The notes under the pieces were generated by a model. It ran no database searches. It saw nothing but the letters and a program-made list of their open reading frames with translations, and was not told the origin of the DNA. From NCBI RefSeq assembly GCF_964355755.1, contig NC_092670.1, forward strand, positions 12,882,795 through 12,946,794: a DNA stretch of 64,000 nucleotides, read 5' to 3'. Positions within the stretch are counted from its first letter, which is position 1. Each line of letters starts with the position of its first letter. Positions 4,988-60,500 of this stretch are shown here, one piece after another. This DNA comes from Antedon mediterranea (lineage: Eukaryota > Animalia > Echinodermata). Made by a program: the position numbers and the translations under genes.

Positions 4988-7358
4988 TTATGGAAATGAC
5001 GTAGCAAACGTGATAAGTAACTCCGTTGTTGACGCGATCGTCATAAATATTCCAAATAGAAACGCAATGACAGCAATTGTAACGCAAGTGATAATTTGAA
5101 TATTTGACATGTACTGGAATTTAAGTTTTATATAAAATATGCAGGGACATATGAAGCTCATCCAGGGACTAACCAAACTACCAATGAACCCCATGAATTT
5201 GGCGAAATGTGGAACTATCACTGCAAAAAATAAACAACTTAGGACGATGACAGCTCGGAAAATGGTAGCCCAAACTGGAGGTGGGTCTTTTGGGGTGGGA
5301 CCATAACAAGGGGGTAACGCGTTGACCCTTAGTAGGTCAAAGTTATCAATGATAAAGAAAAGAAAGAGAGGATAAGTGAAAATAGCTTTGAGAACCAGAA
5401 GCAAACTAACCGCAATGAAAACCGGTCCTGCGGGCATATTATACACAATGAATTCTTTTACATCATTTCCGAACGCAATGTAAGGTGTGATTGAGTAAGC
5501 TAATAGAAGAATTGTACAGAATCCATACGAAAAGTTAATCATAGAATCGAACTTTGACCGATCTTTCATAGTTTCTTCAACACCAGCAATGGCAAAACTC
5601 GCTTCAAAGTTGAATAGGAGTACTCCACAGCTGACAGTGAACGCCCGGATGCCAACGTTCGGTGTGTATTCAAATTGCCAGGTGCTTGAATTAATCTCCA
5701 TGGCTGAATAGACTATGACACTTATAAACATACTAGAAATGGCAAGAATGGCTATGAAACTGCTGATGGAGATCTTGATTAAAGTCCTTAAGAAGATACT
5801 CGGTAAAACCAACACTGTTGTTACGACAGTCCACCACAGTTTGGAAAGTCCGAGTTTTGGAAACGTTTCTACCAACATTGCTCCTGCTAGTTCGAGATAC
5901 AGAGTTGCCACAGCCATACAGTATATGATTTGAATGATAACGATGAACCGTCTGCCGTGTTCTCCCCAGCATGCCTGTGCTATATCTGCATAACTTGATC
6001 TGGTCCTTACTTTCTTAATCTTTCCATCTGGTGTTTCAACATCATCGTACAAACATCGTGCAATCAACTGAATAGAAAATCAAAACTGTCATTATTCGTA
6101 AAGGCACATTAACTTATTTAGCTAAGGTAACAATAGATACATACAGCAGAACGATAAGCCTTCTGACATATGCCTATTATGTTATGTTCAAGTTTTCTGT
6201 AAAGGTTCGCGATTATATCAGGTAATTTCTTTTCCTATTTTAAGACAACATGAAAAATAATTCAATATTGATGCAGACATAACCAACTTTAATTGAATTA
6301 GCCCTATAGACAAATGACTAAATATAGCTCAAATATTAACCTTTTTAAAATAAATTGCGCATGCGCACATACAATTAGTAAGATTCGATGGATGATGACG
6401 TACAAGAACTGTAACTAACAATCGTTAAACACTTACCTTACTCGTGTATACTAAAACGATACAGGCTAAACAAAATATTACGATTGCTGCTACAAGTCCA
6501 CCCTCCTTAAATGCGTAAGGAATACTCAATATACCGACACCAAATATGCAGTTACATATATTACAAGCAGCCTGAAAGGCGGAGCCTTCTCCAAAGTCTC
6601 CAAATCTTCCACTATTTACTGCAAAATATAAATGATCAAAACCTGTCTACACTATCAAACTAGTTTGTGATATATCCAAATATGATGATATGACATCATC
6701 GTGTCCATTATTATGGGCACATCACATTATTTTGTCGCATTAAGTTTGATAGTGTAGACAAAACTTTACATATCGAATCAGTTTATTATCACTTGCAATC
6801 ATTTTCAGGTCCAATTTATCATTAACAGAATGTAATCACCAGTTACAGCATTAGAGAGCTTAATAATTGCAGTCCTTCTTTTGTTCACACATTTCAAGTT
6901 TTCAAGTTCAAGTTTATTGTTTCACACAATACAATACAATAGAACAGTAACATAAATTAATAAAAACAATTGTGTGAGGAGGACGCATTAAGCCAAGGCT
7001 TTAAGTTTGGTCCTCCAGATAATTAATATATTTAATTATTTAATTTAAGTTAATTGACAAGTTAATATTTTATAGTATGTCAAAACGTTACGTCTCGCAG
7101 GAAGAATTACGAAGGCTTAGAGAACATAACTCTACGTAGAGTTCTATGCAAGCCATTTTAAGCTTCCGTATAAAATGAATGAAACTTACTTCCATCAAAG
7201 TTGATAAAAAACGTTCCGTTGGTTTGTGAAAAATGTACAGTTGGATCTTGACTACTTGCAGGAGATTTTTGTTTCGTTGTATCACAAGTGATTCCGTTTG
7301 AGGTTTCGTCAAATGTTGAAACGAGTTTTGTCTTTTCGTTGTAGTCATCTAGCTCCAT
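4988..7358 (-). CDS. Vesicular inhibitory amino acid transporter-like (SLC32/Aa_trans family), ~476 aa, 3 exons
   Basis: Exons 7358-7190, 6618-6437 and 6067-4988 join in frame: MELDDYNEK...AFQAACNICNCIFGVGILSIPYAFKEGG...YTSK|LIARCLYDD...SYADIAQACWG...KAIFTYPL...PHFAKFMGFIGS. Multiple TM helices of the Aa_trans family. Confidence 0.85.
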
Positions 7359-31862: not shown

Positions 31863-39599
<7,737 letters not shown>

Positions 39600-39734
39600 T
39601 GTTGTTTTATTGTTTGCAGTGTTTAAATGCAGGAAACAGTGTACTTAATGTGCTCAACAAATACTAACAAAACACCAACACCGCACATGAAAACGAAACA
39701 AGAGAGATCGATCGAAAAAGTCATATGATTTGCA

Positions 39735-39744: not shown

Positions 39745-40599
39745 GATGCCGATTGAGTACAGAGTAGTCTTTAGTTTCCAGGCACCATTTAATCCTTGGC
39801 TCTTGATGATTATTCATCCTTCCGAGTGGTTAGAAGTTTATTGACATTAATCATCATTACGTAATCGTGATAAACATTGAAAGCATTTAGGCCTATTTAT
39901 CTTTTTTGAGATGTGCTCTCAAATAGTCACTTGGCACTATGGCCTATGTCGTGTCGGAGGAGAAAACCAGATCTATAGGCCTAGTTGTAAAAGATCTTTC
40001 AAGAGAAATTTGTGTAATTTTCGTTTTCTTTTCAGTTCACTGTAATTATTTGAATTTGGAATTCAATTTTCAAAAATAAAATGATCAATCAATCATACAG
40101 TATATTTAGGAAAGAAAAGAAGGAATTGTATCATGTATGTGAGAAAACTATATACAGTATTATAATCGCAGAAGAGACGGTCACTCGCAGATGACGTAGC
40201 CACAGATTGTTGGCTCCCATGATTCCGCGTTATTGATTTTAGATTTCAAATACAATTAAACATGGTAAATATAATAATCCCTTTATTGTTTAAATAACTA
40301 TTTACATTGATTTTATGTTTTCATATTATTGTCCGACTGCTGCCACCCAGTTCAATAGTAAACGTAGGCCTAAGTCTACAAACAAAATCATTCTTCAGCA
40401 GAATATTGGTTTCAAATTGTTCTTATGTTAAAGGTAGGATAAAATTAGTCTAATTTGTCCTTTTATTTTACAGCTCGCACTATATATAATAAGCATATTT
40501 GTTAATTTGCATTTTTGTAAAAACAAACTCTATATATGATTTAAATTGTTTGTGTGCGAAACCGCAATTCTATGCTACAATTGAAATGTGACTTTGATC

Positions 40600-41633
40600 G
40601 TTTAAAATATAAATTTCTTAGTATAGTTGTGTTGACATATTTGAAAAATGTACAGATATAGGCTTTTACAACAATGTTTTTGATAATGATAGTTTAACTC
40701 TTGTTCCTTTCTCAGTTAGCAATGTCGAGCGATGTTTGTCAGAATCATATAAATCAGAGTGGTCAAATAATATAATGCAAAAAACCTCATTAAATTTATA
40801 CTCAAAATTGAAACCTTTCCCTAATTTAGAAAAATATTTACTTGATAAAACACATTTTTATGAGACAAGTCTGAAATTTAAATTAAGATCTAACACTCTA
40901 CCTTTAGATTGTAAAACTTATAAATGGTCCAATGATGTGTCCGGTCTTTGTACTTTATGTGGGAATGGCGAAATCGAAGACATTAAACATTTTTTATTAA
41001 ACTGTAAAGCATTTGATAATATTAGAATGAAAGAATTATCCAATCTACAAATTAATCTTGTACTCTGTAATGATTATGACACATGGAATCGTTACACAAC
41101 AGCAACTGCTGATGATAAATTACAGTATATTTTAGGTGGAGATTCTATCGCGATTTGTAAAGAATCTGAGACCTTTTTTGATTTGTTTTGTAAACAATAC
41201 ACAAGAGCTGCATGGGAGAAACGGTCAGAACTTAAATCTCCCAATATATAGATTGTTTTTCTTTTGTATTGTTGCTTTTATATATTTGTATTTAGATTTG
41301 TAAATAGTATACACCTGTGATAACAACTATAGGTCTTCAGTACCTGATGTTGAAACACAATGGTTTGTAATGTGAACTCTTTACTATATTTTATGTTTAT
41401 TTTTATATACCTCTTTATCAACTCAAACCTATGATACCGTAGGACAATTTAATACAGTACCTATATTACCATGTTGGTAATGATTTTTCTTTTATATTTT
41501 TGCAAACAGTTTAAGAACCTGTATCCGTCATATAATGTATTGTTTTGATGTATTATGTTAAATTGGATGCACCACTTCTGTGTGTGCCACCGATGCAAAG
41601 GTGTCATTTCCTAATAAATTAATTAATTAATTA
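40600..41633 (+). mobile_element. 5'-truncated non-LTR retrotransposon (LINE) relic: ORF2 C-terminus plus 3' UTR
   Basis: ORF 40736-41251 has LEKYL...KFKLRSNTLPL...CTLCGNGEIEDIKHFLLNC (CCHC zinc knuckle downstream of RT, typical of LINE ORF2). It ends in AATAAA + (TTAA)n at ~41613-41633. The 5' boundary is approximate. Confidence 0.75.
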
Positions 41634-41966
41634 AAGCAGAACACCGATATGATATTTTTTTAAAATTTTTGTTTAGATCTTTGACATGTTGATTTGTAGA
41701 AAAATTGTTCTTATGTTAAAGAAAAAGCATGGTTAACAATTAAATATGGCTTGGTCCTCTACGTGGGGAAATGGTGAAATCCACTAAGTGACTGAAGAAA
41801 ATCGTGTCTAAGCATTCTCCATCGTCATGATCCAACCGAAACCGTTGGTTTTCCATTTATAATTGTTTCAATTTCAATCATAATAATGCAGTATTGCCTA
41901 CAATATAATAAAGATATGTTCTTTCTTTTATAGAAGATAAGATCTAGAGAAGAGCGTATGTAAAGT

Positions 41967-44529
41967 ATGACGTCATATCTGCCACAAATAATACAATCGA
42001 AAGGTACGTAAATAATACGTCACTTGATGACGACACACCATAATACTGTATTCCATAATAATTCTACAAAAAATAATTAATAAAGCCGTCCCTGTTCACC
42101 TATTTTTCAGTAAACGATAACAATAATACCATGGCCTACTTATGACCTGTAGGTTTATTTCTTTTTATTTGACATATTAAAAGCATACTGGCAAATAGTG
42201 TCGATTTTTACTTCCCAGCCACACCCACGTCACACCCAAATCCCGGGTCGGCTGCTGTTGTTAATTGTTATCAATAATTCCGTATTTTTAGTTTACAAAT
42301 GCCCAAATCCTCACTGCAGAGCGAACCACGATAAAGACTACAAATACTGCCCAGAATGTGGTACACAAAGAATAGGTGAGTATGTTATCCTTTAGACACC
42401 ACCAAAGTTGTAACATCATCTAAGATTCGACTGGAATTGGTCTAATTTATTAGACATCAGTCTTCTGTAATACAATTAATATCTAACACGTTGTCACAAG
42501 TTTAATTTTGCGAGCCAGTTTTGCTTTTTTCAATTTCATAGTATACCACACGATGATACTTATTTTATTAAAGGTACGTACGTACTACCGTGATAATATT
42601 CACATTACATTTATTTCAGACGAAAACCCGGAATTACCTCATCTTCCTGCTGGTCCGCCTTTAAATATCGTTGTGATTGGAAAAACTGGGCAAGGAAAAA
42701 GCTCAACGGGGAATTCAATCCTATTCCAAGACGCTTTCAAGGATTCATGTTCATCATCGTCAGTTACAAAAGCTTGCCAATGGCAGAGTGTAACAATCGA
42801 TAACCGTGAGTTGCTAGTAGTTGACACCCCTGGTTATTTAGACACAAGTTTCGACAATCCGTTAAATGTAAAAGAAAGCCTGAAGTTTACTAGCGACGAG
42901 GTTGCACGAGGGTTGACAGTTCTAAATGACAACATCCATGCGGTTCTACTGGTCATGAAGTTCGGCGAGCGATGTATTGCGTACGACAGAGCTGTCATAT
43001 TGGCGGCGGAAGAACTGTTCGGAGGAGCTCTTATGGACTATGGGATAGTCTGCTTTTCACATAAAGATGAGATGGAAAGACAGGAACAAAGAAATAAAAT
43101 AAACAAAGAGGAACATTTGAAACAGCTGAAAACGCAGACAATATTTCGAGACATCTTGGGAAAATGTGGAAATCGAGTGGTGTATTTCAATAATCTAGCA
43201 GCCAATGAGGTTGAACAAAAAGCTCAACTGGTTACCTTGATCAAGTTGATTGACAGAACACTAACCAAGAAGGACTTTGTTCCATTTTCAACTGGAAAGC
43301 TTGAAGAGGCAAGAGAAAGAGTGAAACAACGAAAAGAAAAAGAAATGCAAGAAGCAGAAGAAAGAAAACTCAAAGTTGAAGAAAAAAGAAAGGAAGTTGA
43401 CGAAATTATGGAAAAGCAAAAGATAGCCGACGAAGAAAAGACAACAGAAGCAAAGTCAAAACGTAAGATGAGTTTATTAAGAGCTGTGAAAGAAAGAAAT
43501 GATAGAATTAAAGAAGAAGGAAAAACCAGAAAGTTCACACTTAGAAGAAAGTCGAAGTCTAAACCTAAACTCCATGAACTTCCAGAGGACGATAAACAGT
43601 TAGTTGAAGATAACAAGGTCGATGTGGTAGAGAATGGTGAAGCCATCATTGAAGAAAACGGCGGCGTGAGATCATCAGAGCTGACTGAAGGCGAAGAATC
43701 ACATGAAAACAATGAAACAGAATTGAAGGAAGTAGAAGAAAACTCGGATAATAATTCAGAAAAAGCTGTATTGATGGAAATGTCGAGTCTCATACAAGAA
43801 AGAATGATCAGTGTTGAGGAGAAATTTACCAAGTGGTCAGATAAAGAAAAGACTGAGGGAAAAGAGACTGATGGCAAAGAGAAACCAAAAGACCAGATGT
43901 TCACGATAGATGGAGACCTTGAGGATATGGGATGTTTTGCATTTGACAGTAAGGTTATCCTTCGAAGAGGAGAGTGCATTAAAGTGCAGGATTTATGCGT
44001 TGGCGACAGAGTACTCTCTGTTAAATCTGATGGAACAATAGCTTTTGAAGAGGTTTTTATCATAACTCATGTTGTCACCAAAGAAGTGGAAGCCATCAAG
44101 GTCAGCACGGATAAGGGAAGATCAATTACTTTGACGTCAAATCACATGATGCTCATAAACGGAGGCCTTGGCTTTGAATCGATGATTCCCGCTAGAAACA
44201 TCAAACCTGGCCATTTTGTGCTTGTTCTCAACTCGATTCAAGAACTGCAAATTGAGTTGGTTACTGGTGTGGAACCGGTTCTAGTTGCTGGATGTGTTTG
44301 TCCAACTACAACAGGCGGTAGGATTATCGTAGATTCTGTTGTCGTTTCATGTTACCCAGATAATTTCCCGCCATTTCTTCAACACTATGGTCTTTACGCA
44401 CCAATGAGGATGTTCTATTGGCTAATGCCGAATTATAATGCGGGAAAACAAAATGGAATGCCAAAATGGATTTGGTGGCTGAAGAAACTTGTTCATCCAA
44501 CATGGAAAAGGATTCAAGATGCTCTTTAA
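41967..44529 (+). CDS. Zinc-ribbon + AIG1/GIMAP GTPase + coiled coil + Hedgehog-type Hint/Hog domain fusion protein (~676 aa)
   Basis: Exons 41967-42003, 42292-42375 and 42620-44529 (phase-1 introns; in-frame TAA just upstream of the ATG). Zn ribbon KCPNPHC..YCPECG; G1 GKTGQGKSSTGNSIL, G2 SVT, G3 VVDTPG, IHAVLLVM box, G4 FSHKD, FNN; E/K-rich coiled coil; Hint G|CFAFDSKV...VGDRVLS...LTSNH...PTTTGGRIIVDSVVVSCY followed by an SRR-like tail. Confidence 0.9.
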
Positions 44530-45471
44530 ACAAAAACAATTAAGTTCAATTATAAAGTTAACAATTTAACTATTTTATTTCATAATTTTAACAACTTTAT
44601 TGACAAAAGCATTTTAAATTCTAATCTACGGTGATTGAAACTATTTATAAAGATAAATTTCATTTTCGTCATGATTAACCCACCCGCCCTATTAATATTA
44701 AGATTAATAATCTATACAAATATTATTATTTCTCATACAGTGCATTACACATTTAGAAATCCATATTAAATAATACATTACCAAATTTTTTCCAAATAAT
44801 CATTTTATTTGTCATTTGTTTATTTAAAGATGTCTCATTTGAATATAAATGAGAAATCAAACATTATATTTGTATTTATATTAAAATAAAGCTTTATTTA
44901 AGTATACAGCGAAAGAAGCTAAACTTTAGCAATACTTTTTAATAAACATTTACATTTTATGTTTTTAATCATTGTGAGTTGACCATGTACATTAAAAGTA
45001 AAATACATATGAAAACTACTAGATATGTTTATTGTATTTAAAATAAAATAAAAATTCATCATTACTATTATCAATATCCACAGGAAATGAAAGTCCAAGC
45101 AACTAATAACTTTGGGATCATGTCATAATTAATCTACTGCAGTTACTGCAGTACAGTAACTAAATGTTGTTTACTCTCTAATCTCTCTCTTATTTACTGT
45201 CACTGTTTATTTCATGGACTTCTACATTAAAACTAAAATCATGCATTACTGTAATGAAAAAAATAGTTACTGCAGTAACTGCAGTTAGAATAATTTTAAC
45301 ATGATCAAAAATAAAATATCTAAATTCATATATAAGCTATAAAACTAGGTATGCACTCTATACTTTAAAGCAAAGCAATATACAAATAAATATCTGAAAG
45401 AATTGTTTTTTTATAATAAATATATATATCAATACTTGCTCAGTGTATTAAGACTCAGCAGTCCTGTTTAT

Positions 45472-57500: not shown

Positions 57501-60500
57501 CTCACTCATTTTTGTTTCCACATTCAATATTTATAACTTTATATTATTAATTATGTGAAATTATTAAATATTTATAACTTTATTATTAATTATATGTTAA
57601 ATTATTAAATATTTAATATAACTTTGTTTTCTTTTCTAGAAAATTCTGAGAACAATGATCTATGTTCTTTAAGTCTGAAGGAGAAGGATGTAGAGACTTT
57701 GAGAGAATCAATTGAGGATCTGTACTATTTTGAGTTTGTACTTGATGACCTTCCTGTTAGAGGGTTCATAGGTCATCTAGAAGAAGGGGGTTTCATTCCT
57801 CATACTCACAAAATCTACTTATGGATGCACCACCATTTCCACATAGAGTACAATGGCGATCAGGTAACGTTTTGTAAGGCAAATGCAAATTTTGCGGGTC
57901 AAATAGCAAAAAGGGCACAATGCACATAGTGAGAAAGCAAGACAAAAATATAGGTCTGTAGAGCAGTACTGAGTCCAGAAATTCACATGTTTTCAGGTGG
58001 ACTCTATTCACACCCACAAGATCTGCTCCTAGTTTCTGCTATTTCTGCTTCTAAATAACAGCTAAATTTGTTTTTCAAAGTGGCCATAGTATTAACATTT
58101 TTTTACAAAAAAGAAAATTAAAATTTTGCATAGGTGTTTACAGAAAAGAAAGCAAACTAATATTTCATTCTATGACCGCAGGGACCGTCTAATTTACATA
58201 CAGTACATACAAAATTGTTTACACTCAAAACTCTTTCCCTTTTTATTTTTGTTCATAACATCTACAGTAAACTCAAAACATGATCCCCAACAGCAGGTTG
58301 ACCAGGCAGACTAATAATACACTGTTTCTTTCATAGATAATTTATGCAAACATCAGTACACGTGATCGGCAACCCGTTAGCTTGGATGACGTGACCACCC
58401 CACTAGATGTCAAGTTCACTTACAGCGTATCGTGGCATGACACCAAACTAGAATACAAGAACAGAGCCGCTCGTCTTGGCAAAACAAGTTTCTTTCCAAA
58501 GACATTGGAGGTAAGATAATGGTAGTAGATTCTCCCTGCGTATCTAGGCAAACATGTTATTTTTTATAGTATCTTATGCAAATTTCTATATACAGTATTA
58601 CATGTGACATTATTTTTACTTTAATTTTAACCTAACCTTACTAATTCCTATGATAATGTTGTAACTTGTGACACAGAAAATTCATAAGATATTTACTGTC
58701 CATCCATTGTGGTATTTTATTTTCTCCTAAGCAAGAAAACAAAAAAAGATTTTCTGTTTTCATAGGAAGTTACTCCATGCAAATGTTACATGAAATGTAA
58801 AATAAATCTTTTAATTTTGCTTAGGTTCATTGGTTGTCCATTATCAACTCAATGGTACTTGTTTTTCTTCTCATTGGTTTCGTTGTCATAATTATGGTAT
58901 GTATTGGTTGTCAATCAGTAGATAATTAGTAGATTTAGATTTATTTATTCTTTATGTTGAGAAGTCCCTTCAGTACAAGACCGTTCTCCCAGAGGGCCCT
59001 GTCCTGAACCAATATCACCACTCTACACCAGAAGATGATCAAATTCTCCTTTTAAATGAGTGTTCTAGGCTCTTGGTGTACATGTGCAATGTATATGTAC
59101 ATTAGACCAATGGCTGTAAGTCATATCTGAAGGACAAGACAATGAGATTAAATTATCTTGCATAAGGATACAAGAAATATTAGAGAGCCCTAATAATAAC
59201 ATCCGTCTTATTTACATGTCTCCTGATCACTTTTGACCAATGGGTTGTGAGATTATAAAGTGTCAAAAACATTGTTTAACAAGAATACCCACATGACTAG
59301 CCAATTACTGTACAGGATGGGAAAATGCATAGTAACCCTTGTCTTGTATGACATGAGATTGAGCTGGCTGCTTTGGCCATGATTAAAAACCTGCTAATGT
59401 GTCAGAGCCATGGGTTGAACCAAGAACCCTTGGATTGGTAGACGAGAATGCTAAACCACCTAGGTATTGTACCACTAAATATGTACAGTTACAAGGCTCT
59501 ATTCACACTCAGACCACCTTTTATAAATCACTTCTTTTAGATGAGGGTTCTAAAGAATGACTTTGCCCGTTATAATATTGATGAAGAAGATGTAGAAGAG
59601 TTAGATCAAGATGAGAATGGATGGAAGATTATTCACACTGATGTATTTAGATTTCCTGTGTACAAGAACCTCCTTTGTTCAATGCTGGGTAAGTACCAGA
59701 GATATTATATTAGGGAACAATATAAAAGAATGTACTGTATGTAAATTATGCAATTACGTCAATTGTACAAGTCATTGTCAAGCTCTCTATTTCAATTTTG
59801 ATTTGATTGTGACAACCATACACAAACAAATTTTCAAATGAATATAACTGAATCTAAGGTCTTTACCTGGATATAGAATCATTGAAAAGTCCGACAATTT
59901 TGGTCCTCTATCGACCAAATATACATCTTACAAATGGACACCATCTCATAAGAAATTATCAAGATTTGTTTTAATCTCTCTACATTTAAAATATCAGTAT
60001 CAGGCCTGATCAGTATATATCTTTATTAATCCCTCATGGGGAAATTAAACAGAGAAGGAGATGGATTACATCAGCTTACAATAAAAATAAACCATACAAA
60101 CAGTTTTTTATTTACTAAAATATCATATTTCTGCAGGTGTTGGCAGCCAGTTCATTGCGTTAGCTACCTGTATTCTGTTGATGGCTCTACTGGGCATGTT
60201 CAATGTACATCGGCATGGTTCAATGAACACGGCCGCTATTCTTCTTTACGCTTTTACTTCATGTAAGCATATTTTGCATTATTTAAGATTTGTATTGAGT
60301 AATATATTTAAGATCAATAAAGTATTGTGATAGCTTCAGAGACTGTGCCAATTGTCCAAATTTAATTTGATGATAAATGTGTAAGATCTTTAAAAGAATA
60401 TAAATGCACCTCTTTACTGTATGAAAGGTTTGATGAAGCAAAAACTGTGATTTTTAATTACTTGATACACTTGACTGCACAGCATTGCTTGATTTTGAAG

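Follow-up and report, generated by a model that had tools for sequence, protein, structure and literature searches.

A Hedgehog-type Hog module joined to an AIG1 GTPase in the crinoid Antedon mediterranea: gene structure, relatives and predicted reaction

A single polypeptide chain encoded in the genome of the crinoid Antedon mediterranea combines a zinc ribbon, an AIG1 GTPase, a coiled coil and a Hedgehog-type Hog module, that is, a Hint domain followed by a tail resembling the sterol-recognition region (SRR). The gene lies in a 64,000-nucleotide stretch of contig NC_092670.1 (hereafter the window, in which all positions are given). It raises the question of whether a GTPase of the GIMAP type cuts itself by Hedgehog chemistry and, if it does, to what the GTPase half is joined. 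The original prediction, made from the letters of the window, was that a cytosolic GTPase ligates its new C-terminus to a sterol or another nucleophile, and that this chemistry serves intracellular immunity. We analyzed the gene and its transcript, the domains of the protein, the distribution and history of its relatives, and the readings of the predicted reaction.

Gene structure and genomic neighbourhood

The gene is real and expressed as a spliced transcript. Its coding sequence occupies three exons (Table 1), and both introns are bounded by GT..AG. One 2373-nt contig of run X1 lacks both introns and runs without interruption through the GTPase and the Hog into the 3' UTR; the predicted three exons are thereby borne out at both splice joints, and the two domains, rather than being split between transcripts, share one. 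In contrast to X1, DNA contig X3 retains both introns. We treat X1 as RNA since GT..AG introns are missing from it both here and in a neighbouring gene, unlike in X3 and X4, and it is the one run that provides the RNA support for splicing. An assembly chimera or a mis-joining of two genes is ruled out by the single open reading frame, the RNA contig, the DNA contigs and the probable orthologue described below. A tblastn search found one copy of the gene within the window.

A 23-nt loose end of the X1 contig matches positions 40405-40427 exactly, with no matches in 100 shuffles, and falls in a non-coding 5' exon; the true 5' end may lie further upstream. An upstream open reading frame of 12 codons, formed by 40425-40433 joined to 41934-41963, is in frame with the main one and stops 3 nt before the main ATG, and could damp translation. 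The intron in the 5' UTR contains a multi-copy repeat (40568-41655) with a weak zf-RVT match at 40622-41248 (E 7e-4) and an AT-repeat tail at 41607-41641. Since DNA contig X4 (record 9) skips this repeat, it is probably a retroelement fragment with presence/absence variation; no target-site duplication was found at it.

The neighbourhood contains a gene for an aspartic protease (about 32000-39600, minus strand), which is divergent from the AIG1-Hog gene and spliced in X1, and which by its motifs we take to be cathepsin-D-like. Exons for an amino-acid transporter and for an EMP70/TM9SF protein are ordinary host neighbours.

Table 1. Features of the AIG1-Hog gene and two neighbouring exons, in window coordinates
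Feature	Position	Strand	Support or remark
Amino-acid transporter exon	4991-6079	-	Aa_trans, 3.7e-44
Non-coding 5' exon	40405-40433	+	GT donor at 40434
Coding exons 1-3	41967-42003, 42292-42375, 42620-44529	+	Protein of 676 aa
Exon with start codon (41967)	41934-42003	+	In-frame stop (TAA) at 41961-41963
Exon with C4 zinc-ribbon-like motif	42292-42375	+	Splice joints in X1
Zinc-ribbon cysteines, C16-x4-C21 ... C32-x2-C35	42300-42359
Last exon: AIG1, linker, Hog, stop (44527-44529), 3' UTR to at least 44809	42620-44809	+	Single X1 contig
AIG1/GIMAP GTPase, residues 55-279	42661-43335	+	Pfam E 1.3e-43
GTPase motif G1	42679-42702	+
GTPase motif G2	42760-42768	+
GTPase motif G3	42823-42834	+
Conserved-box Arg158	42970-42972	+	Aligns with GR of GIMAP7/5
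GTPase motif G4	43057-43068	+
Long helix, probable coiled coil, residues 267-340	43297-43518	+	AlphaFold2 helix
Basic patch, acidic disordered linker, second helix (residues 408-453)	43525-43929	+	Mostly low pLDDT
Predicted scissile bond, G478-C479	43930-43935	+	Aligns with C258 of Drosophila Hh
Hint domain, residues 479-619	43933-44355	+	Pfam E 8.7e-27
H524 (D46 position)	44068-44070	+
T546	44134-44136	+
H549	44143-44145	+
C618 (C143 position)	44350-44352	+
SRR-like helix-loop-helix, residues 620-676	44356-44526	+	Profile alignment, model helices
EMP70/TM9SF exon	57609-57926	+	9.8e-14

Domains of the encoded protein

Every motif quoted in the original prediction was found at its position. At the N-terminus, the zinc ribbon falls below the cut-off of Pfam Zn_Ribbon_1 (22.1 vs 25 bits, E 1.3e-4); all four of its cysteines are also present in P0001, a protein of the crinoid Anneissia japonica. 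The AIG1 domain scores 149 bits against a cut-off of 27, and human GIMAP7 is its best solved relative by sequence (E 4e-27). An AlphaFold2 model was built from an 18-row alignment (mean pLDDT 70.6). In most of their blocks the GTPase and the Hint domain reach pLDDT 80-93; the model also has a pair of long helices and a linker that is disordered. When this model was searched with Foldseek, ranks 1-10 were all human GIMAPs, including GIMAP7 and GIMAP2. The conserved-box Arg, which has a catalytic role in GIMAPs, is present. The GTPase looks intact and may bind and hydrolyse GTP.

Vertebrate GIMAPs (GIMAP7, 2, 5, 1 and 4) share with this protein the AIG1 fold, the G motifs, the conserved-box Arg and a C-terminal helical extension. 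Some of them carry a hydrophobic C-terminal tail, whereas here the Hog stands in its place. Neither residues 280-478 nor the tail showed a hydrophobic anchor or transmembrane-like stretch in a hydropathy scan, the best 19-residue value over residues 280-478 being 0.43; snail AIGs with a transmembrane segment exist, according to passages of PMC7053062. Over residues 280-345 the identity to P0001 is 92%. A basic patch with RKxS/T-type motifs (residues 321-358, about 43460-43570), largely conserved in P0001, may act as a second signal, for the membrane or the nucleus.

The predicted lack of a signal peptide was confirmed. None is expected, because the N-terminus is hydrophilic (best 11-residue hydropathy 0.23) and the in-frame TAA, which sits 3 nt before the ATG, lets no upstream extension add one; the same stop rules out a hidden signal-peptide exon. 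Nor did the 676-aa protein give a Pfam match to the Hedge domain, so that, in comparison with Hedgehog proper, the signal peptide and the Hedge signalling domain are both missing.

The Hint domain, like AIG1, lies far above its Pfam cut-off, and both its profile and its fold are as predicted. After the GIMAPs, Foldseek placed two Hint structures of Hedgehog, 1AT0 and 6TYY, ahead of inteins; the model superposes on these two with an rmsd of 1.4 A, a TM score of 0.92 by target length and 30% identity. The closest solved sequences are PDB 6td6, 6tyy and 1at0, Drosophila Hh being the best. An N-terminal Cys, the TxxH motif and motif J (SCY) are all present. Passages of PMC12054796 describe the Hh active site as C1, T69, H72, D46 and C143, the last being required. 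Here C479, T546, H549 and C618 correspond to C1, T69, H72 and C143, and the D46 position is occupied by His524, as in the engineered D46H structure. Further background passages are found in PMC3417536, PMC5784728 and PMC9695228.

The SRR-like tail keeps H629, P635 and R637, with one extra residue between H629 and P635, and has G-M-P-K-W where Hh has G-I-H-W-Y. When ten Hogs of the family are combined in a profile, it aligns with Hh from residue 258 to 459, SRR included (E 5.7e-35), and sets G-M-P-x-W of the family against G-I-H-W-Y. The tail had been described as amphipathic and parallel to the SRR. Its helices are predicted in the model (pLDDT about 54-73) and the SRR does align, but the HWY motif is absent, and the hydrophobic moments (0.18-0.57) are not above shuffles in any of the five windows (p 0.07-0.46). 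In sum, Hedgehog (Drosophila Hh and human SHH) and this protein have in common the Hint fold, C1, TxxH, C143, the H/P/R of SRR helix 1 and a two-helix tail. They differ in His for Asp46, in P-K-W for H-W-Y, and in the predicted site of the reaction, which is the cytosol here and not the ER lumen.

Distribution and history of AIG1-Hog proteins

The nearest relative is P0001, the product of LOC117119324 of Anneissia japonica, which is annotated as 'uncharacterized' and has the identical order of zinc ribbon, AIG1, coil and Hog. It is 78% identical over its full length (AIG1 90%, Hint 73%) and is, judged by sequence, the probable orthologue. It was the sole fusion recovered by word-index searches with the single protein. 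A HMMER search, whose matches are dominated by tandem-AIG1 proteins, found both domains in 15 of 153 proteins; among these fusions are proteins of crinoid, sea cucumber, amphioxus (4), Lingula, Potamilus (2), Haliotis (2) and Physella (2), and one further member clusters with Bradybaena. AIG1-Hog proteins thus occur in crinoid, sea cucumber, brachiopod, bivalve, abalone, snail and amphioxus. Searching with the Hog profile gave 22 proteins, among them an expanded set from sea cucumber; none of them is a Hedgehog, and none is a named protein of a fungus. The first hit in the Atlas (0.94) is a 59-member cluster, all AIG1 + Hint and mostly from Mucoromycota.

The sea cucumber Apostichopus japonicus has eight AIG1-Hog proteins (P0140 and P0165-P0171), seven of them with CARD; four share one longest-contig value. 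P0173 and P0186, members of one 90% cluster, carry a near-identical Hog behind ankyrin repeats and behind AIG1, respectively, and represent either a recent exchange of N-terminal parts or fragments of a single larger gene. In P0025, P0058, P0074 and P0127, about 300-490 aa precede AIG1 without a Pfam match at E 1e-3; these N-terminal parts, we presume, may resemble MACPF/stonustoxin-like proteins.

The AIG1-Hint architecture is not new, and any novelty of the fusion itself has to be given up: it is in print for a fungus, a coral, a snail and amphioxus. Self-cleavage of the C-terminal domain of the fungal protein GmGIN1 was reportedly described by Requena in 2002. GmGIN1, from Glomus mosseae, is stated in PMC2362128 to join an AIG1-like domain to a bona fide Hog and to have no signal peptide; by this description the order of GTPase and Hog and the missing signal peptide are common to the crinoid and the fungal protein. 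Rhizophagus AIG1/hedgehog transcripts are noted in PMC6956056. For Acropora, a separate search yielded four AIG1-Hint transcripts (PMC3723955, supplementary file S4), and one Biomphalaria AIG gene has a Hint domain (PMC7053062). Passages of PMC12373286 describe the recurrent CARD/AIG1/HINT architectures of amphioxus as found in no other animals and as convergent with fungi; the sea-cucumber protein P0140 (CARD+AIG1+Hint) contradicts the former statement. Unlike these amphioxus proteins, the Antedon gene has an N-terminal zinc ribbon in place of CARD. The Acropora, Biomphalaria and Branchiostoma GIMAPs share the domain pair with the present gene; the passages on them record it as domain hits, and neither an SRR analysis nor biochemistry was seen there. 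Searches of full-text papers, few of them from subscription journals, turned up no experiment on cleavage or adducts for an animal AIG1-Hog protein.

Trees were built separately from the AIG1 and the Hog parts of the 20 fusions whose AIG1 domain is complete. They have 11 of 17 splits in common, including a clade of mollusc rows and neighbours (SH-aLRT 99 and 87). A Mantel comparison of the two domains gives r 0.82 for the full set and 0.67 when it is reduced to 12 representatives, with p 0.0002 in both cases. The trees are unrooted and include no Hh, coral or fungal sequence among their rows. The deep nodes of the Hog tree are left open, and the fusion label needs four changes on this tree; it does not show the fused Hogs as one clade, nor does the test reject such a clade (p-AU 0.28). 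After 20 unfused AIG1 domains were added, picked from 70 once a first tree had been inspected, an exclusive clade of fused AIG1 domains was rejected (p-AU 0.022), because unfused domains nest among the snail-type fusions; the fusion label requires 4 changes on this tree compared to 13.8 for shuffled labels. The congruent trees fit an old inherited family rather than an amphioxus oddity. On these sequence comparisons, an old AIG1-Hog family, inherited at least across bilaterians and with repeated loss of the Hog, is likely, though a few separate fusions of lineage-specific parts could also give congruent trees.

The predicted reaction and its alternatives

Residue conservation was counted in 22 non-redundant fusions and 8 other Hogs, which make up 30 of 58 Hog-bearing rows after near-duplicates were dropped. 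C1 is present in 21 of the 22 fusions and the His of TxxH in all of them; P0058 lacks the C1 region, which may be a gene-model error. The equivalent of C143 is found in 20/22 fusions vs 2/8 other Hogs, and the H, P and R of SRR helix 1 in 21, 22 and 18 fusions. Pro replaces the His of HWY in 21/22 fusions vs 1/8 other Hogs, and Trp replaces its Tyr (the Y435 position) in 16/22. Gly precedes the cleavage site in merely 3/22. His at the D46 position occurs in 22/22 fusions; as it also occurs in all eight unrelated Hog proteins, it is ruled out as a family-specific trait.

Self-cleavage between G478 and C479, into an N fragment of 478 aa and a C fragment of 198 aa and 22.3 kDa, is a fair inference because the Hog active site (C479, H524, T546, H549 and C618) looks intact, and we consider it highly probable. 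By the chemistry of Hedgehog, C479 would form a thioester at G478-C479 with the help of T546 and H549, C618 may take over the thioester as a branched intermediate, and H524 would act as the general base, while the tail helices would bind the membrane and present a lipid. The GTPase half would then be passed to a membrane sterol or a similar lipid alcohol, which would supply on the cytosolic membrane face the anchor otherwise missing from the N fragment. The freed 54.7-kDa fragment may, as GIMAP biology suggests, be a membrane scaffold GTPase. We give this scheme as a whole an even chance; the sterol adduct on the GTPase half, taken by itself and by analogy with Hedgehog, is similarly balanced.

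Several observations favour transfer to a sterol. The catalytic positions align with those of Drosophila Hh and are kept across most fusions. The D46H variant still autoprocesses in cells (PMC12054796), the D303H variant is active with a wider sterol range (PMC9163320), and Hh cholesterolysis is independent of the N-terminal partner (PMC7242414), as far as passages of these papers go. The tail is kept entire, with both helices, which cleavage alone does not require. Cholesterolysis by hSHH in vitro is lost in the H433A and Y435A mutants but survives in Y435F (passages of PMC7242414 and PMC7906309); read against these mutants, the Trp and Pro substitutions mean that the aromatic HWY position is kept and the His is not. 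The lost His counts against the sterol, as do the insertion between H629 and P635, the scarcity of Gly at -1 and the lack of tail amphipathicity above shuffles. Hh cholesterolysis is placed in the ER in passages of PMC4695875, and no natural cytosolic case was seen. His46, shared as it is with unrelated Hogs, lends the AIG1-Hog family nothing special in this respect.

Next in rank, and rather unlikely in our estimate, the tail may only tether the precursor, and water or a small thiol would resolve the thioester to release a soluble, lipid-free GTPase. The missing HWY His and the variable -1 residue are in keeping with such a release. An hSHH mutant without helix 2 still cleaves, without cholesteroylation (passages of PMC7242414), and Hint by itself hydrolyses (passages of PMC4695875). 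What speaks against release is that the general-base and C143 positions, which serve the transfer step in Hh, are nearly always kept, together with helix 1.

That the G-x-P-x-W tail recognises some lipid other than a sterol, a metabolite, or a protein of the host or of a microbe, to which the GTPase would be ligated, appears less probable still. Here the helix-2 signature, which is family-wide and unlike Hh, is the main argument; in addition, the adduct of non-Hedgehog Hogs is stated as unclear in passages of PMC2362128, nematode Hog tails being named ARR for that reason, and His at position 46 relaxes substrate geometry (passages of PMC9163320). Retention of the helix-1 residues that handle cholesterol in hSHH argues the other way, and no alternative substrate came to light.

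A Hog that does not cleave and acts as a passive C-terminal anchor binding membrane or sterol would resemble the C-terminal membrane targeting of GIMAPs without chemistry, and the incomplete P0058 could be read in its favour; with catalytic residues near-invariant while Hog identity to nine relatives is merely 23-32%, we regard it as very improbable. Intein-like protein splicing, suggested for the coral proteins in PMC3723955, has the Hint fold and a weak Intein_splicing match (20.5 bits vs a cut-off of 35.8) on its side, but is ruled out for practical purposes by the Hedgehog-type VVSCY motif, the missing His-Asn splice junction and C-extein, and best sequence and fold matches to Hh (30% identity) rather than to inteins (12-17%).

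A conditional or immune role of the reaction, as the original prediction had it, is unsupported: the three immune-induced GiMAPs of Acropora lack Hint and are distinct from the four AIG1-Hint transcripts (passages of PMC3723955).

To the published record the present work adds the congruent AIG1 and Hog trees and a family-wide Hog signature distinct from that of Hedgehog, and the wider distribution corrects the claim that the architectures are specific to amphioxus among animals. As a tentative proposal, somewhat short of an even chance, AIG1-Hog proteins may be one ancient family, bilaterian at least and perhaps including corals and fungi, in which a Hog with His46 and G-x-P-x-W joins its own cytosolic GTPase to a sterol or to some other specific nucleophile. 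The Antedon gene presents in nature the general-base swap that was engineered as D46H and is, being compact, expressed and conserved, a direct test case for the adducts of non-Hedgehog Hogs. If lipid transfer holds true, covalent sterol modification would extend to a family of cytosolic GTPases and provide a new ligase scaffold, and nature would have, beside Hedgehog, a second class of proteins that lipidate themselves, one that works on the cytosolic face of membranes.
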